From a virus (Duplodnaviria; Heunggongvirae; Uroviricota; Caudoviricetes), in the IMG/VR virus record IMGVR_UViG_2700989272_000004, positions 1-14,487 of that record: a stretch of 14,487 nucleotides of DNA; one strand, given 5' to 3'. Shown here one piece after another: positions 1 to 14,487 of this stretch (positions are counted from its first letter, which is position 1; every line of letters begins with the position of its first letter). Below the pieces are notes generated by a model. The model saw only the letters and a list, made by a program, of their open reading frames with translations, was not told where the DNA came from and made no database searches. A program made the position numbers and the translations under genes.

Positions 1-681
1 AACTGGATGGCAGGCCTGAAGTCCGGCTGGAGTGAGTGGGAAGAGAGCGCCACGGACAGTATGTCGCAGGTAAAAAGTGCAGCCACGCAGACCTTTGATG
101 GTATTGCACAGAATATGGCGGCGATGCTGACCGGCAGTGAGCAGAACTGGCGCAGCTTCACCCGTTCCGTGCTGTCCATGATGACAGAAATTCTGCTTAA
201 GCAGGCAATGGTGGGGATTGTCGGGAGTATCGGCAGCGCCATTGGCGGGGCTGTTGGTGGCGGCGCATCCGCGTCAGGCGGTACAGCCATTCAGGCAGCT
301 GCGGCGAAATTCCATTTTGCGACCGGGGGATTTACGGGAACCGGCGGCAAATATGAGCCAGCGGGGATTGTTCACCGTGGTGAATTTGTCTTCACGAAGG
401 AGGCAACCAGCCGGATTGGTGTCGGCAACCTGTACCGCCTGATGCGGGGCTATGCGGAAGGTGGTTATGTGGGCGGTGCCGGAAGTCCGGCGCAGATGCG
501 GCGGGCTGAAGGCATTAATTTTAATCAGAACAATCACGTGGTGATTCAGAACGACGGTACGAATGGTCTGCCAGGTCCACAGATGATGAAGGCGGTGTAT
601 GACATGGCCCGCAAGGGTGCCCGTGATGAAATCCAGGCACAGATGCGCGATGGTGGTCTGTTCTCCGGAGGTGGACGATGA
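1..681 (+). CDS. H: Tail tape measure protein, C-terminal portion (5' end lies upstream of the window); lambda gpH-like
   Basis: Open frame runs from base 1 to TGA at 679-681. Translation (NWMAGLKSGWSEWEES...GGLFSGGGR) matches my memory of the lambda gpH C-terminus, including the Gly-rich GSIGSAIGGAVGGG segment. Stop overlaps the start of M, as in lambda. Confidence 0.9.
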   Translation, partial: NWMAGLKSGWSEWEESATDSMSQVKSAATQTFDGIAQNMAAMLTGSEQNWRSFTRSVLSMMTEILLKQAMVGIVGSIGSAIGGAVGGGASASGGTAIQAAAAKFHFATGGFTGTGGKYEPAGIVHRGEFVFTKEATSRIGVGNLYRLMRGYAEGGYVGGAGSPAQMRRAEGINFNQNNHVVIQNDGTNGLPGPQMMKAVYDMARKGARDEIQAQMRDGGLFSGGGR

Positions 682-1007
682 AAACCTTCCGCTGGAAAGT
701 GAAACCCGGTATGGATGTGGCTTCGGTCCCTTCTGTAAGAAAGGTGCGCTTTGGTGATGGCTATTCTCAGCGAGCGCCTGCCGGGCTGAATGCCAACCTG
801 AAAACGTACAGCGTGACGCTTTCTGTCCCCCGTGAGGAGGCCACGGTACTGGAGTCGTTTCTGGAAGAGCACGGGGGCTGGAAATCCTTTCTGTGGACGC
901 CGCCTTATGAGTGGCGGCAGATAAAGGTGACCTGCGCAAAATGGTCGTCGCGGGTCAGTATGTTGCGTGTTGAGTTCAGCGCAGAGTTTGAACAGGTGGT
1001 GAACTGA
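678..1007 (+). CDS. M: Minor tail protein M (109 aa)
   Basis: ATG at 678 overlaps the H stop (ATGA). The 109-aa product (MKTFRWKVKPGMDV...) has the same length and near-identical sequence to lambda gpM as I recall it. Position between H and L is syntenic. Confidence 0.9.
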   Translation: MKTFRWKVKPGMDVASVPSVRKVRFGDGYSQRAPAGLNANLKTYSVTLSVPREEATVLESFLEEHGGWKSFLWTPPYEWRQIKVTCAKWSSRVSMLRVEFSAEFEQVVN

Positions 1008-1705
1008 TGCAGGATATCCGGCAGGAAACACTGAATGAATGCACCCGTGCGGAGCAGTCGGCCAGCGTGGTGCTCTGGGAAATCGATCTGACAGAGGTCG
1101 GTGGAGAACGTTATTTTTTCTGTAATGAGCAGAACGAAAAAGGTGAGCCGGTCACCTGGCAGGGGCGACAGTATCAGGCGTATCCCATTCAGGGGAGTGG
1201 TTTTGAACTGAATGGCAAAGGCACCAGTACGCGCCCCACGCTGATGGTTTCTAACCTGTACGGTATGGTCACCGGGATGGCGGAAGATCTACAGAGTCTG
1301 GTCGGCGGAACGGTGGTCCGGCGTAAGGTTTACGCCCGTTTTCTGGATGCGGTGAACTTCGTCAACGGAAACAGTGACGCCGATCCGGAGCAGGAGGTGA
1401 TCAGCCGCTGGCGCATTGAGCAGTGCAGCGAACTGAGCGCGGTGAGTGCCTCTTTTGTACTGTCCACGCCGACGGAAACGGACGGCGCTGTTTTTCCGGG
1501 ACGTATCATGCTGGCCAACACCTGCACCTGGACCTATCGCGGTGATGAGTGCGGTTATCACGGTCCGGCAGTCGCGGATGAATATGACCAGCCGACGTCC
1601 GATATCACGAAGGATAAATGCAGCAAATGCCTGAGCGGCTGTAAGTTTCGCAATAACGTCGGCAACTTTGGCGGCTTCCTTTCCATTAACAAACTTTCGC
1701 AGTAA
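1007..1705 (+). CDS. L: Tail tip protein L (232 aa)
   Basis: ATG at 1007 overlaps the M stop (TGATG). The 232-aa product matches lambda gpL in length and sequence, including the C-terminal Cys cluster (CGYHG...CSKCLSGC). Confidence 0.92.
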   Translation: MQDIRQETLNECTRAEQSASVVLWEIDLTEVGGERYFFCNEQNEKGEPVTWQGRQYQAYPIQGSGFELNGKGTSTRPTLMVSNLYGMVTGMAEDLQSLVGGTVVRRKVYARFLDAVNFVNGNSDADPEQEVISRWRIEQCSELSAVSASFVLSTPTETDGAVFPGRIMLANTCTWTYRGDECGYHGPAVADEYDQPTSDITKDKCSKCLSGCKFRNNVGNFGGFLSINKLSQ

Positions 1706-1710
1706 ATCCC

Positions 1711-2454
1711 ATGACACAGACAGAATCAGCGATTCTGGCGCACGCCCGGCGATGTGCGCCAGCGGAGTCGTGCGGCTTCGTGGTAAGCACGCCGGAGGGG
1801 GAAAGATATTTCCCCTGCGTGAATATCTCCGGTGAGCCGGAGGCGTATTTCCGTATGTCGCCGGAAGACTGGCTGCAGGCAGAAATGCAGGGTGAGATTG
1901 TGGCGCTGGTCCACAGCCACCCCGGTGGTCTGCCCTGGCTGAGTGAGGCCGACCGGCGGCTGCAGGTGCAGAGTGATTTGCCGTGGTGGCTGGTCTGCCG
2001 GGGGACGATTCATAAGTTCCGCTGTGTGCCGCATCTCACCGGGCGGCGCTTTGAACACGGGGTGACGGACTGTTACACGCTGTTCCGGGATGCTTATCAT
2101 CTGGCGGGGATTGAGATGCCGGATTTTCATCGCGAGGATGACTGGTGGCGTCACGGTCAGAATCTCTATCTGGATAATCTGGAGGCCACAGGGCTGTATC
2201 AGGTGCCGTTGTCATCAGCACAACCGGGCGATGTGCTGCTGTGCTGTTTTGGTTCATCGGTGCCGAATCATGCCGCCATTTACTGTGGTGACGGTGAGCT
2301 GCTGCACCATATTCCTGAACAACTGAGTAAACGAGAGAGGTACACCGACAAATGGCAGCGACGCACACACTCCCTCTGGCGTCACCGGGCATGGCACGCA
2401 TCTGCCTTTACGGGGATTTACAACGATTTGGCCGCCGCATCGACCTTCGTGTGA
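1711..2454 (+). CDS. K: Tail tip assembly protein K (JAMM/MPN plus NlpC/P60 domains); long form of 247 aa, classic lambda annotation would start at 1855
   Basis: ORF 1711..2454. JAMM-like motif HSHPGGLPWLSEAD (H-x-H-x7-S-x2-D) and a Cys/His set (DCYTLF, HAAIY) consistent with NlpC/P60. Sequence from MSPEDW (1855) onward matches lambda K as I remember it. The 3' end overlaps I by about 100 nt, as in lambda. Confidence 0.85.
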   Translation: MTQTESAILAHARRCAPAESCGFVVSTPEGERYFPCVNISGEPEAYFRMSPEDWLQAEMQGEIVALVHSHPGGLPWLSEADRRLQVQSDLPWWLVCRGTIHKFRCVPHLTGRRFEHGVTDCYTLFRDAYHLAGIEMPDFHREDDWWRHGQNLYLDNLEATGLYQVPLSSAQPGDVLLCCFGSSVPNHAAIYCGDGELLHHIPEQLSKRERYTDKWQRRTHSLWRHRAWHASAFTGIYNDLAAASTFV

Positions 2455-3023
2455 AAACGGGGGCTGAAGCCATTCGGGCGCTGGCCACACAGCTCCCGGC
2501 GTTTCGTCAGAAACTGAGCGACGGCTGGTATCAGGTACGGATTGCCGGGCAGGATGTCAGCACGTCCGGATTAACGGCGCAGTTACATGAGACTCTGCCT
2601 GATGGCGCTGTGATTCATATTGTTCCCAGAGTCGCCGGGGCCAAGTCAGGTGGCGTATTCCAGATTGTCCTGGGGGCTGCCGCCATTGCCGGATCATTCT
2701 TTACCGCCGGGGCCACCCTTGCAGCATGGGGGGCAGCCATTGGGGCCGGTGGTATGACCGGCATCCTGTTTTCTCTCGGTGCCAGTATGGTGCTCGGTGG
2801 TGTGGCGCAGATGCTGGCACCGAAAGCCAGAACTCCCCGTACACAGACAACGGATAACGGCAAACAGAACACCTATTTCTCCTCACTGGATAACATGGTT
2901 GCCCAGGGCAATGTTCTGCCTGTTCTGTACGGTGAAATGCGCGTGGGGTCACGCGTGGTTTCTCAGGAGATCAGCACGGCAGACGAAGGGGATGGTGGTC
3001 AGGTTGTGGTGATTGGTCGCTGA
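2352..3023 (+). CDS. I: Tail tip assembly protein I (223 aa)
   Basis: 223-aa ORF overlapping the K 3' end. Sequence matches lambda gpI from memory, including a Gly/Ala-rich hydrophobic segment (GAAAIAGSFFTAGATLAAWGAAIGAGG). Confidence 0.9.
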   Translation: MAATHTLPLASPGMARICLYGDLQRFGRRIDLRVKTGAEAIRALATQLPAFRQKLSDGWYQVRIAGQDVSTSGLTAQLHETLPDGAVIHIVPRVAGAKSGGVFQIVLGAAAIAGSFFTAGATLAAWGAAIGAGGMTGILFSLGASMVLGGVAQMLAPKARTPRTQTTDNGKQNTYFSSLDNMVAQGNVLPVLYGEMRVGSRVVSQEISTADEGDGGQVVVIGR

Positions 3024-3041
3024 TGCAAAATGTTTTATGTG

Positions 3042-3061
3042 AAACCGCCTGCGGGCGGTTT
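3042..3061 (+). other. Stem-loop in the I-J intergenic spacer (possible mRNA structure, not a full terminator)
   Basis: AAACCGCC (3042-3049), loop TGCG, GGCGGTTT (3054-3061). Followed by a T-poor sequence and the J ribosome-binding site. Confidence 0.3.
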
Positions 3062-3083
3062 TGTCGTTTATGGAGCGTGAGGA

Positions 3084-6000
3084 ATGGGTAAAGGCAGCAG
3101 TAAGGGGCATACCCCGCGCGAAGCGAAGGACAACCTGAAGTCCACGCAGCTGCTGAGTGTGATCGATGCCATCAGCGAAGGGCCGGTTGAAGGTCCGGTG
3201 GACGGATTAAAAAGCGTGCTGCTGAACAGTACGCCGGTGCTGGACAGTGAGGGGAATACCAATATATCCGGCGTCACGGTGGTGTTCCGGACCGGTGAGC
3301 AGGAGCAGTCACCGCCGGAGGGATTTGAATCCTCCGGCTCCGAGACGGTGCTGGGTACGGAAGTGAAATATGACACGCCGATCACCCGGGCCATTACGTC
3401 TGCAAACATCGACCGTCTGCGCTTTACCTTCGGTGTACAGGCACTGGTGGAAACCACCTCAAAGGGGGACCGGAATCCGTCGGAAGTCCGCCTGCTGGTT
3501 CAGATACAGCGTAATGGTGGCTGGGTGACGGAAAAAGACATCACCATTAAGGGCAAAACCACCTCGCAGTATCTGGCCTCGGTGGTGGTGGATAACCTGC
3601 CGCCGCGCCCGTTCAATATACGGATGCGCAGGATGACGCCGGACAGCACCACAGACCAGCTGCAGAACAAAACGCTCTGGTCGTCATACACCGAAATCAT
3701 CGATGTGAAACAGTGCTACCCGAACACGGCCCTGGTCGGCGTGCAGGTGGATTCGGAGCAGTTCGGCAGCCAGCAGGTGAGCCGTAATTATCATCTGCGC
3801 GGGCGCATTCTGCAGGTGCCGTCGAACTATAACCCGCAGACGCGGCAATACAGCGGTATCTGGGATGGAACGTTTAAGCCAGCATACAGCAACAACATGG
3901 CCTGGTGTCTGTGGGATATGCTGACCCATCCGCGCTACGGCATGGGGAAACGTCTTGGTGCGGCGGATGTGGATAAATGGGCGCTGTATGTCATCGGCCA
4001 GTACTGCGACCAGTCGGTGCCGGACGGCTTTGGCGGCACGGAGCCGCGCATCACCTGTAATGCGTACCTGACCACACAGCGCAAGGCGTGGGATGTTCTC
4101 AGTGATTTCTGCTCGGCGATGCGCTGTATGCCGGTATGGAACGGGCAGACGCTGACGTTCGTGCAGGACCGACCGTCGGATAAGGTGTGGACCTATAACC
4201 GCAGTAATGTGGTGATGCCGGATGATGGCGCGCCGTTCCGCTACAGCTTCAGCGCCCTGAAGGACCGCCATAATGCCGTTGAGGTGAACTGGATTGACCC
4301 GGATAACGGCTGGGAGACGGCGACAGAGCTTGTGGAGGACACGCAGGCCATTGCCCGTTACGGTCGTAACGTCACGAAGATGGATGCCTTTGGCTGTACC
4401 AGCCGGGGGCAGGCACACCGCGCCGGGCTGTGGCTGATTAAAACGGAACTGCTGGAAATGCAGACCGTGGATTTCAGCGTGGGCGCAGAAGGGCTTCGCC
4501 ATGTGCCGGGCGATGTCATTGAAATCTGCGATGATGACTATGCCGGTATCAGCACCGGCGGGCGCGTGCTGGCGGTGAACAGCCAGACCCGGACGCTGAC
4601 GCTCGACCGTGAAATCACGCTGCCATCCTCCGGTACCACGCTGATAAGCCTGGTTGACGGAAGTGGCAATCCGGTCAGCGTGGAGGTTCAGTCCGTCACC
4701 GACGGTGTGAAGGTGAAAGTGAGCCGTGTTCCTGACGGCGTTGCCGGATACAGCATATGGGGGCTGAAGCTGCCGACGCTGCGCCAGCGCCTGTTCCGCT
4801 GTGTGAGTATCCGTGAGAACGATGACGGCACGTATGCCATCACTGCCGTGCAGCATGTACCGGAGAAAGAAGCCATCGTGGATAACGGGGCGCACTTTGA
4901 CGGCGACCAGAGCGGAACGGTAAACGGTGTCACGCCGCCAGCGGTGCAGCACCTGACCGCAGAAGTCACCGCAGACAGCGGGGAATACCAGGTGCTGGCG
5001 CGCTGGGACACGCCGAAGGTGGTGAAGGGCGTGAGTTTCCTGCTTCGCCTGACCGTGGCAGCGGATGACGGCAGTGAGCGGCTGGTCAGCACGGCCCGGA
5101 CGACGGAAACCACATACCGCTTCACGCAGCTGGCGCTGGGAAACTACAGGCTGACAGTCCGGGCGGCAAATGCCTGGGGACAGCAGGGCGATCCGGCATC
5201 GGTATCGTTCCGGATTGCCGCACCGGCAGCGCCGTCGCGGATTGAGCTGACGCCGGGCTATTTTCAGATAACCGCCACGCCGCATCTTGCCGTTTATGAT
5301 CCGACGGTACAGTTTGAGTTCTGGTTCTCGGAAAAGCGGATTGCGGATATCAGGCAGGTTGAAACCACAGCACGCTATCTTGGTACGGCGCTGTACTGGA
5401 TAGCCGCCAGTATCAATATCAAACCGGGCCATGATTATTACTTTTATATCCGCAGTGTGAACACCGTTGGCAAATCGGCATTTGTGGAGGCCGTCGGTCG
5501 GGCGAGCGATGATGCGGAAGGTTACCTGGATTTTTTCAAAGGCCAGATAACCGAATCCCATCTCGGCAAGGAGCTGCTGGAAAAAGTCGACCTGACGGAG
5601 GATAACGCCAGCAGACTGGAGGAGTTTTCGAAAGAGTGGAAAGACGCCAACGATAAATGGAATGCCATGTGGGGCGTCAAAATTGAGCAGACCAAAGACG
5701 GCAAACATTATGTCGCGGGGCTTGGCCTCAGCATGGAGGATACAGAGGAAGGCAAACTGAGCCAGTTTCTGGTTGCTGCTAACCGTATCGCGTTTATTGA
5801 CCCGGCAAACGGGAATGAAACGCCGATGTTTGTGGCGCAGGGCAACCAGATATTCATGAACGACGTGTTCCTCAAACGTCTGACGGCCCCCACCATTACC
5901 AGTGGTGGAAATCCACCGGTATTTTCCCTGACACCGGACGGAAAGCTGACCGCTAAAAATGCGGATATCAGTGGCAGTGTGAATGCGAACTCCGGGACGC

Positions 6001-6497
6001 TCAACAACGTCACGATAAATGAAAACTGTACGATTAAGGGCATGCTGGAGGCGAATCAGGTCAGAGGTGATTTTGTTAAAACAGTATCCAAATCATTCCC
6101 GAAAAAGGCTGGTACGTGGGGTAATACGGAAACACCAGACGGGACGGTTACAGTCACCATCAGCGATGATCATAACTTTGACCGTCAAATCATTATTCCG
6201 CCCATTATCTTTAACGGTATAGCGTATGACGCTCCGGGAAGTGGTGATAACCCGGGAGGTACAAGGTACACGGGGTATGGTTTTGAAGTTCGCAAAAACG
6301 GCGTATTAATCGCATCCAGAGAAACTAAAGGGGCCATTCCCGGTAGTTACAGTGCGGTTATTGATATGCCGAGTGGCAGGGGAAGCGTCACTCTGGAGTT
6401 TAAGATTTTCCAGAAAGGCAATCAGGGGGCAGGCAATATCACCGACTGTACGGTGATTGTGACCAAAAAGGCTGCTTCCGGTATCAGTATTCGTTGA
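3084..6497 (+). CDS. J: Central tail fibre / host-specificity protein J (1137 aa) with a diverged C-terminal receptor-binding domain
   Basis: ATG at 3084 preceded by GGAG/GAGGA. N-terminus [34 protein letters not shown] and most of the protein match lambda gpJ (1132 aa) from memory. The last ~150 aa (from about nt 6030) differ from the lambda C-terminus as I recall it, and the DNA there is visibly AT-richer. Confidence 0.95.
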
Positions 6498-6519
6498 AAT
6501 TGTTATAACCCCAATAAAG

Positions 6520-6543
6520 GGCGTCAGGAATGACGCCTTTTTT
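6520..6543 (+). terminator. Rho-independent terminator downstream of J
   Basis: Perfect 7-bp stem GGCGTCA (6520-6526) / TGACGCC (6531-6537), loop GGAA, followed by a T6 run (6538-6543). Confidence 0.75.
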
Positions 6544-6567
6544 ATTGCAGAAAAGCGAGAGGTAATT

Positions 6568-7167
6568 ATGCGTAAAGTTTGTGCAGCCATTTTGTCCGCA
6601 GCCATCTGTCTGGTCGTATCCGGTGCGCCTGCATGGGCGTCTGAACATCAGTCCTCGCTGAGCGCGGGGTATCTTCATGCCTCGACGAACGTTCCCGGCA
6701 GCGATGATCTTAACGGGATTAACGTGAAATACCGTTATGAGTTTACGGACACGCTGGGGATGGTGACGTCATTCAGTTATGCAGAAGACAAGAATCGCCA
6801 GCTGACTCATTACAGCGATACCCGCTGGCATGAAGATTCCGTGCGTAACCGCTGGTTCAGCGTGATGGCGGGGCCGTCTGTGCGCGTGAATGAATGGTTC
6901 AGCGCGTATGCGATGGCGGGTGTGGCTTACAGCCGTATTTCTACTTTCTCCGGGGATTATCTCCGCGTAACTGACAACAAGGGGAAAACGCACGAAGTGC
7001 TGACCGGAAGTGATGACGGTCGCCGCAGCAACACGTCTCTGGCGTGGGGGACTGGCGTGCAGTTTAACCCGACCGAATCCGTGGCCATTGATATTGCTTA
7101 TGAAGGCTCCGGCAGTGGCGACTGGCGCACTGACGGTTTCATCGTGGGTGTCGGTTATAAGTTCTGA
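6568..7167 (+). CDS. lom: Lom-family outer-membrane beta-barrel protein (Ail/Lom/PagC family), 199 aa
   Basis: Signal-peptide-like N-terminus (MRKVCAAILSAAICLVVSGAPAWA). C-terminus AIDIAYEGSGSGDWRTDGFIVGVGYKF and GINVKYRYEFTD match lambda Lom from memory. Position directly after J is syntenic with lambda. Confidence 0.9.
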   Translation: MRKVCAAILSAAICLVVSGAPAWASEHQSSLSAGYLHASTNVPGSDDLNGINVKYRYEFTDTLGMVTSFSYAEDKNRQLTHYSDTRWHEDSVRNRWFSVMAGPSVRVNEWFSAYAMAGVAYSRISTFSGDYLRVTDNKGKTHEVLTGSDDGRRSNTSLAWGTGVQFNPTESVAIDIAYEGSGSGDWRTDGFIVGVGYKF

Positions 7168-7194
7168 TTAGCCAGGTAACACAGTGTTATGACA

Positions 7195-7220
7195 GCCCGC
7201 CGGTTCAGGCGGGCTTTTTT
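7195..7220 (+). terminator. Rho-independent terminator downstream of lom
   Basis: Stem GCCCGCC (7195-7201) / GGCGGGC (7208-7214), loop GGTTCA, followed by a T6 run (7215-7220). Confidence 0.75.
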
Positions 7221-7231
7221 GTGGGGTGAAT

Positions 7232-10200
7232 ATGGCAGTAAAGATTTCAGGTGTACTGAAAGACGGTGCAGGTAAACCGGTACAGAACTGCACAATCCAG
7301 CTGAAAGCAAAACGTAACAGCACCACGGTGGTGGTGAACACGGTGGCCTCAGAAAATCCGGATGAAGCCGGGCGTTACAGCATGGACGTTGAGTACGGTC
7401 AGTACAGCGTTATTCTGTTGGTGGAAGGCTTCCCGCCATCGCATGCCGGGACCATCACCGTGTATGAAGACTCACAACCGGGTACGCTGAATGATTTTCT
7501 TGGTGCCATGACGGAGGATGATGCCCGTCCGGAGGCACTGCGCCGCTTTGAACTGATGGTGGAAGAGGTGGCGCATAACGCGTCCGCAGTGGCACAGAAC
7601 ACGGCAGCCGCAAAGAAGTCAGCCAGCGATGCCGGCACATCTGCCCGTGAGGCGGCAACCCATGCAACCGATGCTGCAGGCTCAGCACGTGCCGCCAGCA
7701 CGTCAGCCGGACAGGCTGCATCATCTGCTCAGTCAGCATCTTCCAGCGCAGGAACGGCATCAACAAAGGCCACTGAAGCATTAAAAAGTGCTGCCGCTGC
7801 AGAGTCCTCAAAAAGCGCGGCAGCCACCAGTGCCGGTGCGGCGAAAACGTCAGAAACGAATGCCGCAGCATCACAACTATCAGCAGCCACTTCTGCATCC
7901 ACCGCGACCACGAAGGCGTCAGAAGCTGCCACCTCAGCCCGGGATGCGGCGGCCTCAAAAGAGGCAGCGAAATCATCAGAAACGAACGCATCATCAAGTG
8001 CCAGTAGTGCAGCTTCCTCGGCAACGGCGGCAGGAAATTCCGCGAAGGCCGCAAAAACGTCTGAGACGAATGCGGATAACAGCGCACAGGCGGCAGCAGA
8101 CTCACAAACTGCATCGGCAAACTCCGCGACAGCAGCCAAAAAATCAGAAACCAACGCGAAAAATAGCGAGGCAGCAGCAAAGAGCAGCGAAACAAACGCT
8201 AAAGCCAGCGAAACTAATGCTAAATCCAGTGAAACAAACGCGGCGAAATCTGCGGCGGACGCACTTAATTATCGCAACCAGGCGCAAGTAATTGTTGGGG
8301 GTAATATCGGTCTTGGCTCAGCTCCGCGTGATTGTCCTGATATTTCCGGCAACCCATCAGGGTATATCGGATTTATGCGTATTCGTGAAGCAGCCACTGG
8401 TTTTCCGTCCATTGCTTCAGGTGAGTCGTACTTAACAGGCTTTATTAGCGGTTGCGATGGTTCTCCTACATATGCGGGTATATTCCAGGGTTGGAATTCA
8501 AGATCCCTGTATACCTATCGCTGGTCGAGCGCCACAGGCCCGCAATGGACACGTCACGCAAGAAAGGATGAAGTTGACCGTCTTGACCAATGGAATAGCG
8601 AAACATGGTTATATAATCATGATAAATCCATGCGACTTGGTTTAACCGCCTCATCATGGGGTTGTTACAGCGACACACAAAAAAAATGGATACCACTTGA
8701 TGTTTCTCATGGTGGTACTGGTGCGGCAACTATTGATGGTGCAAGAACTAATCTTGGATTAGGCAGGGATAACAGCCCTCAACTTAACAGTCTATTTCTT
8801 GATAGATATAGTGATTCTACTGGCGCATACACTACTGGCGGAATGCTCCATACGAGGCTGTTAGCAAATGACAACACTGTGCGCCTTGCCGCTGATATGT
8901 ATGTTCAGACTTTTCCAAATGAGCAAGGTCGATTAACAATAAGGTTTACATACGGTGGTTCAACTGGTGCTACAAAATGTCTAGACCTTAACTCAGAAGG
9001 TAATTTAATTGTAGATAGTGCGATACTGAAATCAACGGTCGAAAAACCTTTACAAATAAATAGTGCTAACCCGGCAATAAGATTTAATGAAACAGATCGC
9101 CCGGCTAACACGCCTACTTATACTCTCATTGCTAATGCTGGCGACTGGTTTATTCAGAAACGCGATTATGATGATGCCGGAAGCGTTAGTAACGCAATTT
9201 CATATAATTTCGCAAACGACAGAATTGATGTGCAAAATCTTAAAGCGTCTGGGTTAATTACAGCTAACTCAGGAATCGCAACATTAACAGGTCATGACTG
9301 GAACGCTCAGCATACTGATAACGTCGACAAATTTAGACCAATCGCAGGCAGTACAAACGGCCCGGCAGGTTCTATGGTTCTTGGCGGCATTCATGTTCAA
9401 TTTAGTAAAAATTATGCTGTGCAGTTCGGAGGCCGCAATTCCGGTTTTTGGGGAAGAACAATTGAAAATGGAACGACGCAGGAATGGAAGAAATTACTAA
9501 CAGTAGACGATCTCAATTCATCTACCGATCTTGCTGTCAGGTCATTAACCACATCTAACCCGGTAAAATCTGGCGGAGGGCGAATTGATGTCCTTGGAAG
9601 CACGTCAGACTATAGCAAAATGGATTGCTTTGTACGTGGGTTTGATAGCACCGGTAATTCTCTCGCGTGGGCGTTGGGTTCATCAGTCGGCGTAAGTAAG
9701 ATGCTGTCGCTAAAAAATTTCTTTAGCGGAGCTGAGATACTGTTAAATGGTAATGACGGCGCGGTTCAACTCAAAACAGGTGCTGTTAACGGGGCTAAAG
9801 CGCAGACGCTCACTATCAACAAGGATGAGGTTAACTCAACTGTTGATTTAACTCTTACAAAACAAACAGGGACTGGAAATAGTTTTGTTTTACAGAACTT
9901 AGGTAATACAGAACTATCATTTGCCGCAAAAGTATGGGGATCAAGTGATCGACAAAACGTTTTTGAGGTTGGAACGTCTGCTGCGTATCTGTTTTATGCG
10001 CAAAAAACGTCAGCAGGCCAGTTGTTTGATGTAAATGGCGCTATTAATTGCACAACGCTGAATCAGTCATCAGACCGCGACCTTAAAGACGATATTCTCG
10101 TTATCAGCGACGCGACGAAAGCAATCCGTAAAATGAACGGATACACCTACACGCTCAGGGAAAACGGGATGCCTTATGCTGGCGTTATTGCACAGGAAGT

Positions 10201-10504
10201 AATGGAGGCGATACCAGAAGCTGTGGGATCGTTTACTCATTACGGTGAAGAGTTGCAGGGACCAACGGTTGACGGCAATGAATTACGTGAAGAAACACGT
10301 TATCTGAATGTTGACTACGCCGCCGTGACGGGGTTACTTGTTCAGGTCGCCCGTGAAACAGATGATCGCGTTACCGCGCTGGAAGAGGAAAACACAACGC
10401 TACGTCAAAATCTGGCAACAGCAGGCACCCGGATCAGCATTCTGGAAAATCAGGTAAGCGAACTGGTTGCACTTGTCCGGCAGTTAACAGGAAGCGAACA
10501 TTGA
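7232..10504 (+). CDS. stf: Side tail fibre protein, mosaic: lambda Stf-like N-terminus with Ser/Ala-rich repeats, novel C-terminal module ending in a peptidase-S74-like intramolecular chaperone domain
   Basis: ATG at 7232 with GGGGTG upstream (the ORF track starts at an in-frame GTG at 7226). N-terminal ~280 aa (MAVKISGVLKDGAGKPVQNCTIQLKAKRNSTTVVV...) match lambda Stf from memory. The C-terminal ~145 aa (SDRDLKDDILVISDATKAIRKMNGYTYT...LEEENTTLRQNLA...) resemble the self-cleaving chaperone domain of K1F endosialidase / T5 pb1-type fibres. DNA after about nt 8280 is visibly AT-richer. Confidence 0.88.
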   Translation: MAVKISGVLKDGAGKPVQNCTIQLKAKRNSTTVVVNTVASENPDEAGRYSMDVEYGQYSVILLVEGFPPSHAGTITVYEDSQPGTLNDFLGAMTEDDARPEALRRFELMVEEVAHNASAVAQNTAAAKKSASDAGTSAREAATHATDAAGSARAASTSAGQAASSAQSASSSAGTASTKATEALKSAAAAESSKSAAATSAGAAKTSETNAAASQLSAATSASTATTKASEAATSARDAAASKEAAKSSETNASSSASSAASSATAAGNSAKAAKTSETNADNSAQAAADSQTASANSATAAKKSETNAKNSEAAAKSSETNAKASETNAKSSETNAAKSAADALNYRNQAQVIVGGNIGLGSAPRDCPDISGNPSGYIGFMRIREAATGFPSIASGESYLTGFISGCDGSPTYAGIFQGWNSRSLYTYRWSSATGPQWTRHARKDEVDRLDQWNSETWLYNHDKSMRLGLTASSWGCYSDTQKKWIPLDVSHGGTGAATIDGARTNLGLGRDNSPQLNSLFLDRYSDSTGAYTTGGMLHTRLLANDNTVRLAADMYVQTFPNEQGRLTIRFTYGGSTGATKCLDLNSEGNLIVDSAILKSTVEKPLQINSANPAIRFNETDRPANTPTYTLIANAGDWFIQKRDYDDAGSVSNAISYNFANDRIDVQNLKASGLITANSGIATLTGHDWNAQHTDNVDKFRPIAGSTNGPAGSMVLGGIHVQFSKNYAVQFGGRNSGFWGRTIENGTTQEWKKLLTVDDLNSSTDLAVRSLTTSNPVKSGGGRIDVLGSTSDYSKMDCFVRGFDSTGNSLAWALGSSVGVSKMLSLKNFFSGAEILLNGNDGAVQLKTGAVNGAKAQTLTINKDEVNSTVDLTLTKQTGTGNSFVLQNLGNTELSFAAKVWGSSDRQNVFEVGTSAAYLFYAQKTSAGQLFDVNGAINCTTLNQSSDRDLKDDILVISDATKAIRKMNGYTYTLRENGMPYAGVIAQEVMEAIPEAVGSFTHYGEELQGPTVDGNELREETRYLNVDYAAVTGLLVQVARETDDRVTALEEENTTLRQNLATAGTRISILENQVSELVALVRQLTGSEH
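8180..8242 (+). repeat. Three tandem in-frame 21-bp repeats encoding K(S/A)SETNA heptads, inside a wider Ser/Ala-rich low-complexity tract (about 7590-8260) of stf
   Basis: Codons read KSSETNA-KASETNA-KSSETNA at 8180-8242. Further dispersed (K/A)(T/S)SETNA copies near 7847, 7970, 8055 and 8140. Confidence 0.8.
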
Positions 10505-10552
10505 TATCCTTCAAGCCCTGAAGGAGGCTGTTCCTGGTACGTTCAGACTGTT

Positions 10553-10675
10553 GTTGAGCTGGAGATCGCAACGGAGGAAGAAATCTCGTTGCTGGAAGCA
10601 TGGAAAACATATCGGGTATTGCTGAACCGTGTTGATACAGTAAACCCCGTCTGGCCTCCACCTTCGAAGCGATAG
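10553..10675 (+). pseudogene. 3'-terminal remnant of a tail fibre assembly gene (tfa), about 40 codons, no start codon
   Basis: Translation [40 protein letters not shown] matches the conserved Tfa C-terminus (lambda Tfa ends ...[36 protein letters not shown]... as I recall). It is in frame with, and 3' of, the stf TGA stop at 10502-10504. Confidence 0.65.
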
Positions 10676-10979
10676 CCCAGCAACTCCTAAATAGCTGCGC
10701 ATAATACCGCTACACCAGCCGTTTTACTGACATTTGGAATATTGCGTGAGGGCAACATATCGAGGGGCAGATACAGCTCGGTCAAATAGAAAAACAGCCC
10801 CACTATTTACCATGCAATAGCTGGTCAAAAGGAGAGCACTATTCCGCTCCGCGTAGTATTTTGTGTTTATAGTGATAACTTAGGTAATGCTTAGTCACTA
10901 AGATACTTTGCTATTGGAGAGCGATTTATAATGTGGGCGCAACAGATTTTTACTATTGCGCCACTTGCTCTTGTGAGTA

Positions 10980-12068
10980 CTATTCGCTATAAGTTAATGT
11001 TGGTTTTGAAAGTCTTTTGGATATTGTTTTTCCGATATTAATGAATGGAGTTTCAATATATTTATAAATAAAGAATGATAAGAACAAGCTAAGAGCAATA
11101 ATGAATGAAAACTTAGAAAACCCAGGTTTTTCATAAAGCGGAATGAAATCCTTAAAATTAATTAAAAATAGCATTACTATCGCATGGGATAAATACAGAG
11201 AGTAAGAGATATCACCTAGCTTACTGAGTATTTTATTTTCCCTTAATCCGAAGTTAACTTCATAAAGTAAAACTCCCGTAATTATGGAGGCTGCCCACAA
11301 TCCGAAGTTTAAAGGGCCATGACCAAATCTGAATTGATAAAAATATGAGCAAACACCAAATGAAACCAAAAGGAATGATATCGCCTTTGCGTTTTTTATA
11401 TGTTTAAATTTTCTGTGTATTATATACAGAAACATCCCATAAACGAATTCTAACAGCATGGGTGATGACATTAAGTTTAGAAAGCCAATATGCCAATGAC
11501 CTGTATCACCAATCGTAAACTTACTTGATAGAGAAAGGCTGTTGGAAAATTTCAACTGTATGAGAAGTAGCGGGACTATCAATGCAATAACTGATATTAA
11601 TAATCTGTTTTTATGACTCAGCGATATTGCAAGCATAAAAATGAAATAAAAATAGACTTCAAAGGTTAATGTCCATGCTGGATAAAGCACGTTGTATCCG
11701 AAGAATGGCGCTTCTGAATAATAGTCCAGGTGAAGCAGAAACAATGAACGCAATAATTCACTTTCGGTGAAGACCGGGTTCAATAAAAAGAATAAGATTG
11801 TGCAAATGAAAAATACAGGGTAAATCCTGAAAAAACGCCTGGTCATAAAGTTAATAGGGGAATTTGTTTCTTTTTTTTGACTCGATAGCATTATTATAAA
11901 TCCACTTATAATAAAAAACAGATCAACCCCAAAACCACCACTAATAAACAATAAATCACCTAGATCTTTTTGTGCGTAAACTTCATTTAGGTATTGTTTA
12001 TTGTGATATGCAACAACGAGTAATGCTGCTACACCTCGCAAATAGTGAATTGATTTTACCTTCTTCAT
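10980..12068 (-). CDS. Acyltransferase family 3 integral membrane protein (OafA/Oac-like; putative O-antigen/LPS O-acetyltransferase), 362 aa
   Basis: Signature motifs of the acyltransferase-3 family: YLRGVAALLVVAYH (R-x10-H), GVDLFFIISGF, FMTRRFFRIYP, GDISYSLYLSHA, YIETP. Highly hydrophobic throughout. DNA is strikingly AT-rich compared with the flanking phage genes. No obvious Shine-Dalgarno sequence. Confidence 0.88.
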   Translation of the reverse strand: MKKVKSIHYLRGVAALLVVAYHNKQYLNEVYAQKDLGDLLFISGGFGVDLFFIISGFIIMLSSQKKETNSPINFMTRRFFRIYPVFFICTILFFLLNPVFTESELLRSLFLLHLDYYSEAPFFGYNVLYPAWTLTFEVYFYFIFMLAISLSHKNRLLISVIALIVPLLLIQLKFSNSLSLSSKFTIGDTGHWHIGFLNLMSSPMLLEFVYGMFLYIIHRKFKHIKNAKAISFLLVSFGVCSYFYQFRFGHGPLNFGLWAASIITGVLLYEVNFGLRENKILSKLGDISYSLYLSHAIVMLFLINFKDFIPLYEKPGFSKFSFIIALSLFLSFFIYKYIETPFINIGKTISKRLSKPTLTYSE

Positions 12069-12282
12069 TTTTATATAATCACTGTTCCAATTTTTTTTAT
12101 TTTACAAACAATTCTATCTAGCTCATTAGTACTCAAAGTCAGATTGGTAGCAATAAAAAAACAAGATATGTGATGACATGGCGCGGGGCTCAGAACCACT
12201 CGTGTATTTTCGCCACTGGCTATGACTGGCTGCACCTGCAAGATCTGCCATTTGTGTGCCAGTATACCCAAGCTCTGACTTT

Positions 12283-12784
12283 ATGTTTACCAGATCCTCT
12301 GGAGTGCCGGGGAGTATAATCGTTGATTAATCGAATCTGCAACTATTTCAGAACGACCTAGGTTAAAGTGCGCTCTGCAGTCTCTTATATAAGGTGATAC
12401 TTTAATTGTCTGGAAACTGGACAGGTTAGGAAGGAGCAGGAAACATCTTATTATACTTACCGAGTAGCTGCGGGTAAGGGGGGGGGATTTCCGTAGCCTG
12501 ACAGGTAACATTGACACGTCAACACCGATGGTTTTTTTATTTTTCCATGTGATGGGGCCCTGGTTGAAATGAAGCGTGAACTGATTGATGACTGAACAAA
12601 AGTTGGACTGGAAGATGCTCGCGCACAGGGAGGAATTGGTGGACGTCGTCCTAAACTTACATCAGAACAATGGGCGCAGGCCGGGCGATTAATTGCATCA
12701 GGAGTTCCTCGCCAGAAGGTGGCGATCATCTATGATATTGGCATATCGACTTTGTATAAGAAGTTTCCGGTCGGAGATAAATGA
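12283..12784 (+). pseudogene. Decayed serine DNA invertase gene (Pin/Hin/Gin/Cin family) with frameshifts and in-frame stops
   Basis: Recognisable invertase segments lie in three different frames: ERPRLKCALQSLI*GDTLIVWKLDRLGRSRKHLIILTE (frame of 12393), DFRSLTGNIDTSTPM and FFHVMGALVEMKRELIDD* around 12487-12595, and an intact C-terminal helix-turn-helix GGIGGRRPKLTSEQWAQAGRLIASGVPRQKVAIIYDIGISTLYKKFPVGDK* (12629-12784). In-frame stops at 12390 and 12593. Confidence 0.75.
12478..12486 (+). repeat. G9 homopolymer tract inside the invertase pseudogene
   Basis: Nine consecutive G at 12478-12486. The invertase reading frame changes in this neighbourhood. Confidence 0.9.
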
Positions 12785-12887
12785 AACCGTAGCACGTCGT
12801 ATGCAAGAACGTGCCACGGCTGGCTGGCGAACTTTCGATAGTGCGAGTATTGAATGATTTCCAGCCGTTACCGATTTTACGTGTTAA

Positions 12888-13136
12888 TTAGTGAACAAAC
12901 CACTCGTCAGCAGATTCCCAGGTGTCTTTCAGAGTCTCCTGAACAAAAGTTTTTGCAGAATCCTTATCTGCGGTGCGTGTAACAGAAAGACCATCGTTGC
13001 TGGTGGCTTTTACGATCACCTCTACATCGTCATAACGTTTACTGATGCGTCGGGTTAATTCTTCCTTTAACGCATCCACAGCACCGGTTGGCATTTTAGT
13101 CATTTTTTCTTTGGCTATGCAGATTTCAATACGCAT
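12888..13136 (-). CDS. DinI-family protein (DNA-damage-inducible protein I-like), 82 aa
   Basis: [11 protein letters not shown]...[16 protein letters not shown] resembles E. coli DinI (MRIEVTIAK...ETWESADDWFV) as I recall it. GAGGGA Shine-Dalgarno 6 nt upstream of the ATG. Two LexA boxes in its promoter. Confidence 0.85.
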
Positions 13137-13149
13137 AAAAGTCCCTCTA

Positions 13150-13169
13150 TACTGTGTTTGTATACAGTA
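13150..13169 (-). promoter_or_regulatory. LexA (SOS) box 1, promoter-proximal, upstream of the dinI-like gene
   Basis: TACTGTGTTTGTATACAGTA: a perfect TACTG-N10-CAGTA palindrome, 14-33 nt upstream of the dinI-like start codon. Confidence 0.75.
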
Positions 13170-13171
13170 TT

Positions 13172-13201
13172 ATTTTTAACTGTATGGATAAACAGTGTCA
13201 A
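13172..13201 (-). promoter_or_regulatory. Putative sigma70 promoter of the dinI-like gene (-35 TTGACA, 17-nt spacer, -10 TAAAAAT)
   Basis: On the - strand: TTGACA (complement of 13196-13201), 17-nt spacer, TAAAAA(T) (complement of 13172-13178). The -35 overlaps the integrase stop codon at 13198-13200. Confidence 0.5.
13178..13197 (-). promoter_or_regulatory. LexA (SOS) box 2, lying in the spacer of the putative dinI-like promoter
   Basis: AACTGTATGGATAAACAGTG (CTGT-N8-ACAG core), centred about 28 bp from box 1. Confidence 0.65.
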
Positions 13202-14295
13202 GGGGTCTTATTTCTGCTCCTTTGGAGCTCTTCAAAACGATTATGTAAAGATTTCGGATACAGTTCGGTATATACCTGCCATAGCACGTTTAATGAACGA
13301 TGCCCTGTAACCTGGGCTACTTCCTCAATACTAAAACCAGCCTCAAATAAGCGACTTGCCCCTTCTCTACGCAAATCATGGTATCGCAGATCCTTAATAC
13401 CTAATTTGCTTCTTACCCTCTGAAATCCCGCAGTAACAGAAGTGCTGTTATATGGAAAAATGAATTCCGATTTTTTGGGCTGTCGTTGGACGATATCCCA
13501 GGCTTCCCCAAGCAAGGCTACTTTCATGTGGTTGCCTTCCTTTTTGCGTGGATCTTTCCTGTCTCTTACGAGTATAGATTTTTGTTCCTGGTCGAGATCT
13601 TCCCATCGTAACCGGCATACTTCTCCGATTCGCATACAGGACCACACAGAAAATTTGAGGATATCAACGAACGGAATTTTTGAGCATTTATGAGTAGATC
13701 GTTGTTGAAGGCCTTCAATGAGCATGTCCAGTTCATCAGATGCTGGTCTACGATTACGACGGTTTGATTTACCAATCAAACCAAGTTTAAGTAGATATGG
13801 ACGAGCACTTTTCGCCGGGTTTGATGTGTAATTAATTCCGTATACAGGTTTGGCCGCATCCAGAACACTGCCAAGATAACTAACATCGTGGCTGACTGTT
13901 GCTGGACCTGCGCCAGCGTTGTTTCTTAGCCTGCAATGTTCAATTACGTCATTTTCTGTCAGTTCAGATAGTTTGATCGCGGAGATGTCACTATCCATAA
14001 GCAGTTCCAGCACATATCTTTTAGTACGGCCTGCTTTACCTCCGGCATTTGGGTCATTTAAATATTTGTGTAGTAAGTCACGGACTGTAAGTCCGTCAAC
14101 TGCATTTGATGATGGAATGCCATATAGATCTAATTCCATCACTTTCTGTGTGCCCCATGTTTTGGCATGAGCATGTTTAGGGAATGTTTTGCTTTCCCTG
14201 TAAGTGATAACACCTTTTTCTTTGATAATCACATTACAGCGATAGCGTGGTGTGCCATCGGATTTTAGTCGTTTCTCTATGTTATAGTACGCCAT
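13198..14295 (-). CDS. int: Tyrosine recombinase / phage integrase, 365 aa
   Basis: 365-aa ORF with GAGG Shine-Dalgarno 8 nt upstream. C-terminal catalytic-domain motifs typical of tyrosine integrases: LRYHDLRREGASRL (H-x-x-R) and VTGHRSLNVLWQVYTELY (His plus nucleophilic Tyr). Confidence 0.92.
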   Translation of the reverse strand: MAYYNIEKRLKSDGTPRYRCNVIIKEKGVITYRESKTFPKHAHAKTWGTQKVMELDLYGIPSSNAVDGLTVRDLLHKYLNDPNAGGKAGRTKRYVLELLMDSDISAIKLSELTENDVIEHCRLRNNAGAGPATVSHDVSYLGSVLDAAKPVYGINYTSNPAKSARPYLLKLGLIGKSNRRNRRPASDELDMLIEGLQQRSTHKCSKIPFVDILKFSVWSCMRIGEVCRLRWEDLDQEQKSILVRDRKDPRKKEGNHMKVALLGEAWDIVQRQPKKSEFIFPYNSTSVTAGFQRVRSKLGIKDLRYHDLRREGASRLFEAGFSIEEVAQVTGHRSLNVLWQVYTELYPKSLHNRFEELQRSRNKTP

Positions 14296-14314
14296 TACAC
14301 GACCTCGTTATTTC

Positions 14315-14350
14315 GGGTTCCCATAAAACGTGGGAACCTGTGCGGGAACC
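14315..14350. other. Inverted/direct GGGAACC repeat cluster upstream of int (possible protein-binding sites or 5'-UTR hairpin)
   Basis: GGGTTCCCA (14315-14323) and TGGGAACC (14331-14338) form an 8-bp-stem hairpin with a 7-nt loop. A third GGGAACC copy at 14344-14350. Confidence 0.3.
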
Positions 14351-14487
14351 TAACGCGAGAAAAATAGCCTGAAATGTTCAAAAATGCACGATAATCATGA
14401 AACACAAAAAATTAATCAAACCAGCGTGATGCCTGAAAAAACTGGTGTTTACTGGAATTCTCGGTTTAGCATTGCTCCTATGCTCGA

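Follow-up and report, generated by a model that had tools for sequence, protein, structure and literature searches.

What does an intact, AT-rich gene transcribed against the tail operon do at the far end of a lambdoid prophage of Escherichia coli, and could it change the surface of the cell that carries it? The locus lies in a stretch of 14,487 nucleotides (the window) taken from an IMG/VR record of a tailed virus. A preliminary description, made from the letters alone, saw in it an acyltransferase-3 (AT3) moron and a strong candidate for lysogenic conversion. Comparison with known phage acetyltransferases leaves the gene a credible candidate for that role.

The AT3 gene and its place in the prophage

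The window is read as the integrase-proximal end of a lambdoid prophage at dusA because of its dinI–int–dusA junction, which hundreds of E. coli genomes also have. From position 7 to 10504, the plus strand carries a lambda-type tail end that begins with the C terminus of the tape measure and continues through M, L, K (JAB plus NlpC/P60), I, J, Lom, and the side tail fibre, Stf. Beyond stf(+), the order is the tfa remnant, AT3(−), the decayed small ORF, the pin remnant, dinI(−), int(−), and dusA (Table 1). The orientation of AT3 against the late operon, as the preliminary description had it, is seen directly in these strands. The Stf protein combines an N-terminal PF08400 domain with a C-terminal S74 intramolecular chaperone domain (PF13884), and its distal part is 85% identical to the side tail fibre of mEp460. 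Stf was considered as a guide to the receptor and set aside; its distal part resembles mEp460, FritzHoffmann, and T5-like fibres and identifies no glycan.

Table 1. Features of the window, with the evidence used to call each (L numbers denote loci compared in the text)
Feature	Position	Strand	Basis
Side tail fibre (Stf), 1092 aa, convergent neighbour of AT3	7226..10504	+	PF08400, PF13884, phrog_6578
Conserved cargo module tfa'–AT3–psi-orf–psi-pin	10504..12868	.	Recurs as one block
Tail-fibre assembly (tfa) C-terminal remnant, left edge of cargo module	10553..10675	+	Partial tfa annotated in the 96–98% identical block of L001; Caudo_TAP match in L014
Stable hairpin, 16–47 nt 3' of AT3 stop codon	10933..10964	−	Folding of 86-nt stretch
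AT3 (acyltransferase-3) gene, 362 aa, without fused SGNH domain	10980..12068	−	ORF, PF01757, phrog_3333, motifs, AF2 model
Pseudogene of 87-aa phage protein, upstream of AT3	12073..12336	−	phrog_20491, tblastn remnant
Pin/Hin-family invertase remnant	12392..12785	+	Homology to pinE of L011
DinI-like gene	12888..13136	−	NCBIfam NF007893 (E 2e-20), phrog_189
Tyrosine integrase of dusA-integrating elements	13198..14295	−	PF00589; adjoins dusA in L002, L011, L013
dusA 5' end, host/prophage junction	14384..14487	+	Translation; dusA annotated equivalently in L002, L011

The AT3 gene is a 362-codon ORF with an ATG start, antisense to the tail operon. At the ORF's own composition (30% A, 38% T), the chance probability of that many stop-free codons is ~6e-12. 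Its GC content is 32.4% (GC3 32%), compared with 55–59% for tail genes H'–J and lom, 48% for stf, and 43% for dinI and int, which bears out the earlier remark that it is far richer in AT than the phage genes.

The family assignment is also upheld. The Pfam model PF01757 (Acyl_transf_3) matches the protein with 120.7 bits (E 9.1e-35) against a gathering score of 31 bits, and residues 5–335 take up nearly the whole profile (positions 2–325 of 326). The match to phrog_3333, "O-acetyltransferase," is full length (E 3e-71), and phrog_6705, "O-antigen acetylase," a profile of 647 positions, matches weakly (E 5e-14). All five motifs listed in the preliminary description were located in the 362-aa protein, namely R-x10-H (R11-x10-H22), VDxFFxxSGF (V48-DLFFIISGF), RRxxRIYP (R77-RFFRIYP), SYxLYLxH (S288-YSLYLSH), and ExP (E339-T-P341). 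Further E.P strings occur at 119 and 313 and are not the conserved one. In an alignment of 64 sequences, made up of the AT3 protein and 63 relatives of 38–52% identity, D49, F51, F52, S55, G56, R78, R81, P84, S288, S290, Y292, and E339 are invariant, and R11, H22, H295, and P341 are kept in at least 90%.

Pfam places no SGNH/GDSL domain in the protein. NCBIfam offers no equivalog and only a 19.7-bit local SucT match, the locus matches none of the defence-system models of PADLOC, and an Rfam search of the entire window gave no match. By family membership, catalytic motifs, and fold, the AT3 gene is intact. It is an uncharacterised further example of a well-known kind, and its RefSeq annotation is already generic. 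A literature search found no paper citing the RefSeq accession WP_000756238, and a paper on porcine ETEC does not mention strains ETEC1731 and ETEC1747.

A recurrent cargo module and its relatives

The status of the gene as phage cargo, proposed in the preliminary description, is confirmed by a sister dusA prophage (L002, isolate 162). This prophage has the same stf, followed directly by tfa'–dinI–int with no AT3 gene, and its homology to the window ends at 10639 and resumes at 12784. Another dusA prophage (L011, strain CX21) has, ahead of dinI–int, an invertible tail-fibre unit that is intact (stf, tfa, tfa', stf', pinE). Compared with L011, the AT3 cassette stands where the inverted tfa'/stf' genes and the first ~54 pin codons would be. 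Homology to pinE begins at window position 12392 (8692 in L011). Compared by translation, the pin remnant lacks those codons, including the catalytic serine region, and contains frameshifts and stops; in L001 the same stretch is annotated as a frameshifted partial recombinase.

The module recurs as one block across E. coli. It is 96–100% identical in every E. coli copy fetched (including L001, L012, L013, L018, and L101–L104), and its right-hand end at 12868 is common to copies wherever the flank differs. Lambdoid prophages carry it at three chromosomal sites. One is icd/e14 (L001), where a McrBC-like pair and an icd remnant follow; another is beside xdh genes and an IS66 element (L012, L017, L019); and the third is dusA (the window, L013–L016, L018), where the copies are 99.5–100% identical to the window. 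When carriers are counted as genomes with at least 80% of 10700–12300 present, the full module is found in 35 of 5426 complete E. coli genomes (~0.6%), always on the chromosome and annotated "acyltransferase family protein." An assembly index records the exact AT3 protein in 158 blocks, from three chromosomal sites. The window as a whole is matched by no complete genome (the best reaches 89% coverage at 95.7% identity), and phage GenBank records contain no DNA-level match to the AT3 gene. The cassette is a mobile block that recurs in different prophages. Prophage carriers can have broken tail genes, as in CV839-06, where the tape measure and J have internal stops.

The AT3 ORF is free of frameshifts and premature stops in 14 of 14 E. 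coli copies (window counted), while the genes on both sides of it, tfa, the small ORF, and pin, are wrecked. One copy (L103) has the AT3 stop codon changed to Trp. The seven other substitutions in the ORF among the E. coli copies include five synonymous and two nonsynonymous changes; the resulting pN/pS of ~0.11 (binomial P 0.007), from a small sample, is a hint that purifying selection may act on the ORF.

The decayed small ORF directly upstream derives from a gene for an 87-aa phage protein that matches phrog_20491 and shows a weak, sub-threshold match to an Xre-like HTH. In Serratia prophages this gene is intact and its stop overlaps the AT3 start (ATGA). In the E. coli copies it is dead, with its ATG changed to ATT, two 1-nt insertions, and in-frame stops, and tblastn finds the remnant in 14 of 14 copies (window counted). 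The DNA from 11893 to 12336, which spans the AT3 5' end and the 87-aa gene, is 73% identical to that of an S. fonticola prophage (L006/L007).

Signals for expression are harder to recognise. Consensus scans of 10400–13200 returned promoter-like sites no more often than shuffled sequences did and zero terminator-like sites, and the region upstream of the AT3 ATG has no obvious Shine–Dalgarno sequence. The 86 nt from 10900 to 10985 fold at −20.6 kcal/mol (z = −3.7 versus shuffles); the hairpin formed there has no U tract, and the consensus terminator scan made no call on it. It is possibly the 3' end of the transcript. In E. coli, H-NS usually silences DNA of the ~32% GC kind, and the AT3 gene is a plausible target. 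Copies differ in a T7/T8 tract that lies 90 nt before the AT3 ATG. Two candidates for switching were rejected. For an invertible segment, there are no convincing inverted repeats around AT3 and the adjoining invertase is truncated and frameshifted; for phase variation through the coding-strand A8 tract (11871–11878), the tract is invariant in the 13 other E. coli copies.

At 90% identity, the AT3 protein belongs to a cluster with 364 member sequences. Identity then falls to 50–54% in Serratia marcescens and S. fonticola and to 38–50% in hundreds of proteins from Enterobacterales; the names that relatives bear in their sources are generic, such as "ExoZ exopolysaccharide production protein" and "peptidoglycan/LPS O-acetylase." Among sequenced phages, the best tblastn match is a Pseudomonas phage protein of 36% identity. 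When the contigs of five non-identical relatives were read, four proved to be prophage-borne and antisense to their adjacent genes. Three lie between a Gp53-like baseplate/fibre protein and a 620–700-aa tail protein in Mu-like prophages, and one, from E. coli, has a 735-aa protein on one side and the lysis cassette on the other. The remaining relative belongs to an island in a flagellar region, where it follows a stand-alone GDSL/SGNH gene and adjoins another AT3 gene.

These relatives bear on the earlier proposal that the gene was acquired from a low-GC donor, which they do not support. Five relatives sampled (from Serratia, another E. coli, and one further sample), including the four in prophage tail or lysis modules, have 31–34% GC inside loci of 48–53% GC; a Pseudenterobacter relative has 40.5%. 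Because the sampled relatives are equally AT-rich, low GC characterises the phage-borne clade in every host sampled and gives no pointer to a low-GC bacterium, leaving a bacterial donor of that kind unsupported. The immediate source looks like another phage, with the closest cassette in Serratia prophages. The Serratia relatives within PHROG 3333 (P0002, P0003, P0005; 50–54% identity) are likewise antisense in a tail-fibre module, share the 31–34% GC, and have the same small upstream gene. They differ in that their prophages are Mu-like myoviruses with the upstream gene intact, whereas the E. coli carrier is lambdoid and the gene has decayed.

A wider view comes from IMG/VR, where 429 viral contigs encode an AT3 relative and the loci of the best 80 of these were analysed. 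Among the contigs of at least 30 kb in the best 80 of 429, the relative lies in the terminal 10% in 38 of 53, compared with 20% expected at uniform position (P ~7e-16). Within the same best 80, the downstream neighbour is convergent in 61 of 73 cases, and tail-fibre or tailspike PHROGs are matched by at least 26 of the 73 downstream neighbours and by at least 17 of 73 upstream ones. At 53 of these 80 loci, a protein of at least 500 aa is convergent downstream or codirectional upstream. Genes of the AT3 clade repeatedly accompany phage receptor-binding genes at the end of the prophage.

Predicted fold, characterised enzymes, and proposed mechanism

An AlphaFold2 model of the AT3 protein, built from the 64-sequence alignment, has a pLDDT of 93.7 and a pTM of 0.91. 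The ten membrane-length helices predicted in the model agree with the earlier view of a polytopic membrane protein, and the chain ends at residue 362, after helix 10. In the model, R11 and H22 fall inside helix 5–22, R78-F-F-R81 is at the start of helix 71–96, and a 32-residue loop (97–128) with a short helix (102–109) separates helices 3 and 4. In the published AT3 fold, R-X10-H is in helix 1 and RXXR is at the cytoplasmic end of helix 3; OafB and Oac both require these four residues, which line a pore that acetyl-CoA can enter (PMC9833829). The predicted model matches that fold, including the long TMH3–4 loop.

Searches of the PDB found no relative of the AT3 protein by sequence, with only a chance match to Ninjurin-2 (E 0.3), and no solved AT3 structure by fold with Foldseek. 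The only solved structures with a Foldseek signal are those of human HGSNAT (PDB 8vlg, 8vkj, 8jl4; probability 0.93–1.0, E 0.02), and the matches are weak, with TM-scores of 0.30–0.40 and 13–14% identity. HGSNAT is similarly an acetyl-CoA-dependent transmembrane acetyltransferase, and the matched structure has bound acetyl-CoA. HGSNAT has been grouped with AT3 proteins in a proposed TmAT superfamily, and the fold signal is consistent with that proposal (PMC12423673).

Several phage AT3 enzymes, including Oac of Sf6, OacD of SfII, OafB of BTP1, and an oac homologue of PhiV10, acetylate the O-antigen, and several prevent superinfection by impeding the tailspike of the phage that carries them (PMC9558356). 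The Sf6 enzyme (gene 15, an O-antigen O-acetyltransferase) offers the closest parallel in arrangement. It is also an AT3-only protein, of 333 aa compared with 362, with the R-x10-H, FFxISG, and RxxR motifs. The analogy drawn with Sf6 oac in the preliminary description extends to gene order and orientation. The order tailspike(+), oac(−), int(−) in Sf6 corresponds to stf(+), AT3(−), int(−) here, with oac convergent with the receptor-binding gene. The AT3 gene has the position of an Oac-type gene in a temperate phage, flanked by the receptor-binding gene and int/att and off the late-operon strand.

The differences from Sf6 are also clear. By BLASTP the two proteins share 29% identity over the N-terminal ~170–180 residues only, with the C-terminal half unaligned. 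In a tblastn search of phage genomes at E ≤ 1e-5, Sf6 Oac is absent and no characterised serotype-converting phage is among the matches. Among the characterised Oac-type enzymes (Oac, OacB, OacC, OacD, and that of PhiV10), the direct comparison was with Sf6 Oac, to which the AT3 protein shows no full-length similarity. The phages differ too: Sf6 is a podovirus of the P22 kind whose tailspike is an endorhamnosidase, and the window comes from a lambdoid siphovirus bearing a side tail fibre. For oac, a putative promoter and terminator are annotated in the Sf6 record, and neither is recognisable at the AT3 gene here.

Other characterised enzymes are more distant in design. OafA of Salmonella and OafB (of BTP1 prophage GtrC family II, and prophage-borne) have the AT3 domain and the same essential motifs; they acetylate the O-antigen and block the phage's own tailspike (PMC9833829, PMC9558356). 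They are, however, AT3–SGNH fusions: an 11th helix and an SGNH domain in the periplasm extend them, and the AT3 protein has neither. WecH (YiaH), the E. coli ECA O-acetyltransferase, is a stand-alone AT3 protein as well, but it is a chromosomal core gene, and only residues 3–58 align, at 33% identity. On these comparisons, the AT3 protein is neither an Oac orthologue nor a WecH paralogue nor a fusion of the OafA/OafB type. The caution in the preliminary description that the sequence does not reveal the substrate stands, given the lack of an NCBIfam equivalog, the 29% identity to Sf6 Oac over half of the protein, and an alignment to WecH limited to the first 61 residues.

Because it has no SGNH domain, the AT3 protein is placed with the AT3-only enzymes like Oac and WecH. 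In AT3-only proteins, the AT3 domain is thought to carry out both transport and transfer, and a partner is not excluded (PMC9558356). By analogy, the protein would be a stand-alone enzyme of the inner membrane, encoded by cargo DNA of a temperate lambdoid phage. It would take acetyl-CoA at the cytoplasmic face via R11 and R78-x-x-R81, and the acyl group would pass through the pore of the ten-helix bundle, past H22. A sugar of an envelope polysaccharide would then be O-acetylated on the periplasmic side, with the O-antigen repeat unit of the lysogen as the likeliest target. The expected outcome would be an altered serotype epitope and altered adsorption of phages that read that glycan, that is, lysogenic conversion and superinfection exclusion. 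That the lysogen expresses the gene, which acyl donor and acceptor the enzyme uses, and what phenotype follows (serotype conversion or exclusion) are all inferred.

Target glycan, activity, and significance

The reading favoured here, and a probable one, is that the gene encodes a stand-alone AT3 cargo enzyme that would O-acetylate a surface glycan, most likely the O-antigen. Several observations were counted against this reading. They include the missing orthology to any characterised enzyme, the lack of promoter or terminator signals beyond chance and of an obvious Shine–Dalgarno sequence, the decay of an upstream partner gene that is start-coupled in Serratia, the rarity of the gene (35/5426), and a GC content of the kind that H-NS usually silences. 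The receptor-binding part of Stf also resembles fibres of phages grown on rough K-12, so no link is drawn from Stf to the O-antigen.

An active enzyme could instead use another acceptor or transfer an acyl group other than acetyl, which is judged rather unlikely. The acceptors proposed include group 1/4 capsule or K antigen, colanic acid, ECA, osmoregulated periplasmic glucans, and peptidoglycan, and AT3 proteins are documented on all of these glycans (PMC9558356). The generic names of the relatives (ExoZ, peptidoglycan/LPS O-acetylase) would fit such a role, as would the lack of orthology to any O-antigen acetylase and the relative that lies beside a stand-alone GDSL/SGNH gene in a flagellar-region island rather than in a phage. 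However, the clade is overwhelmingly found beside phage receptor-binding proteins, the arrangement of O-antigen-modifying phage genes, and E. coli has its own dedicated AT3 enzymes on the chromosome, WecH for ECA among them. It is improbable that the gene goes unexpressed, as an intact-looking relic riding silently in a cargo region that is otherwise decaying and retained only because its block is young and spreads by recombination between prophages. Pseudogenes on both sides (tfa', psi-orf, psi-pin) are in line with a relic, as are the lack of a recognisable promoter, terminator, or clear ribosome-binding site, the broken tail genes possible in carriers (CV839-06), and the copy without its stop codon; copies that are 99.5–100% identical have had little time for decay. 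Against this, the AT3 ORF is unbroken in 14 copies while the 264 nt upstream lost a start and gained two frameshifts and stops. Five of the seven substitutions are synonymous, the catalytic residues are all kept, and the exact protein occurs in 158 assembly-index blocks at three chromosomal sites.

Beyond the favoured reading of an O-acetylating cargo enzyme, a broader idea, which we regard as distinctly unlikely, is that the cassette would be one half of a paired "receptor writer/receptor reader" unit that travels with receptor-binding genes, with the 87-aa HTH-like gene as its original regulator, lost in E. coli. In E. coli, the cassette would have replaced a Pin-invertible tail-fibre host-range switch, and the tfa and pin remnants flank it. 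In S. fonticola, the cassette directly adjoins a gene for a tail protein that has a GDSL/SGNH esterase domain, and a polysaccharide deacetylase gene is near the cassette in S. marcescens. The GDSL/SGNH tail protein, the deacetylase, and the pin/tfa remnants together suggest that the acetylation written might be matched to what the fibre reads or erases.

The AT3 finding is real but ordinary, since phages often carry genes of this kind to acetylate sugars on the surface of their hosts, and it opens no new kind of biology. If active, the enzyme would produce an O-acetylated variant of a surface polysaccharide in ~0.6% of complete E. coli genomes, which could affect how strains are serotyped, how antibodies recognise them, and how sensitive they are to therapeutic or environmental phages. 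The characterised converting acetylases, which come mainly from Shigella and Salmonella phages, would then also include a lambdoid case from E. coli. Characterising one member would help annotate hundreds of prophage genes in this large, AT-rich clade of stand-alone AT3 proteins.

Setting of the acyltransferase-3 cassette

The prophage in the window is a member of the group that integrates at dusA, and on the phage-proximal side of the junction the N terminus of dusA reads MHDNHETQKINQTSVMPEKTGVYWNSRFSIAPML. The pin–dinI–int module is common to lambdoid prophages and to those with Mu/P2-like tails. The latter type is represented by L011, another dusA prophage, where an intact pinE and an invertible tfa/stf' segment lie at the position matching the invertase remnant of the window. 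Therefore, the cassette carrying the acyltransferase-3 (AT3) cargo gene seems to have replaced a tail-fiber host-range switch. A G9 tract is found at 12478–12486, inside the remnant region.

The side tail fiber has a mosaic receptor-binding end, formed by its distal half, and for this reason only a fragment of tfa is left downstream of stf. Across this part of the gene (8250–10500, plus strand) GC content falls to 40–45% from about 58%, and the encoded protein is 85% identical to the side tail fiber of phage mEp460. The fiber terminates in an S74 self-cleaving chaperone domain. The Lom/Ail gene is a second moron of the window, of the classical lambda type, and the long antisense open reading frame within J most likely arises as a side effect of a GC-rich coding strand.

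Features of the window and of loci with relatives of the AT3 gene
Feature	Locus	Coordinates	Strand	Match or remark
Antisense ORF within gene J	window	3684–5708	-	674 codons
Lom/Ail outer-membrane protein gene	window	6568–7167	+	PF06316, E 2e-122; between J and stf
Pseudogene of 87-aa phage gene	window	12073–12336	-	phrog_20491, weak Xre-like HTH
Homopolymer tract	window	12155–12161		A7 on plus strand; 90 nt upstream of AT3 start
Pin/Hin-type invertase remnant	window	12392–12785	+	lacks catalytic N terminus
Integrase and 5' end of dusA	window	13198–14487		the two adjoin
Polysaccharide deacetylase, Serratia marcescens prophage	L003	4079–4930	-	PF01522
Tail protein (620 aa), Serratia fonticola	L007	1–1862	-	GDSL/SGNH esterase domain, 34.8 bits
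Stand-alone GDSL/SGNH protein, Pseudenterobacter	L009	7136–7831	+	directly upstream of AT3 relative

Decay of the upstream gene and variation among copies

An intact 87-aa gene is present in Serratia prophages, where it overlaps the start codon of AT3. Its remnant in E. coli has lost the start codon and carries two frameshifts and stop codons in every copy compared (14 of 14). In the window the native frame is still kept over the final ~25 codons, and the stop of the remnant reading frame is separated from the AT3 ATG by 2 nt. Copies located at the xdh/IS66 site (L012, L017, and L019) have one additional base in the homopolymer tract. In a single copy, the IMG/VR locus L103, the AT3 stop codon is changed from TAG to TGG at the equivalent of window position 10981, extending the reading frame. 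In the prophage version at the icd/e14 site (L001, 16437–19510), an AAA ATPase and McrC pair, which is a McrBC-like restriction system, lies between the AT3 module and the icd remnant that comes after it.

Acyl-removing neighbors of AT3 relatives

The relatives of the AT3 gene in S. marcescens, S. fonticola, and Pseudenterobacter have neighboring proteins of acyl-removing kinds. These pairings could represent a writer/eraser or AT3-plus-SGNH partnership.
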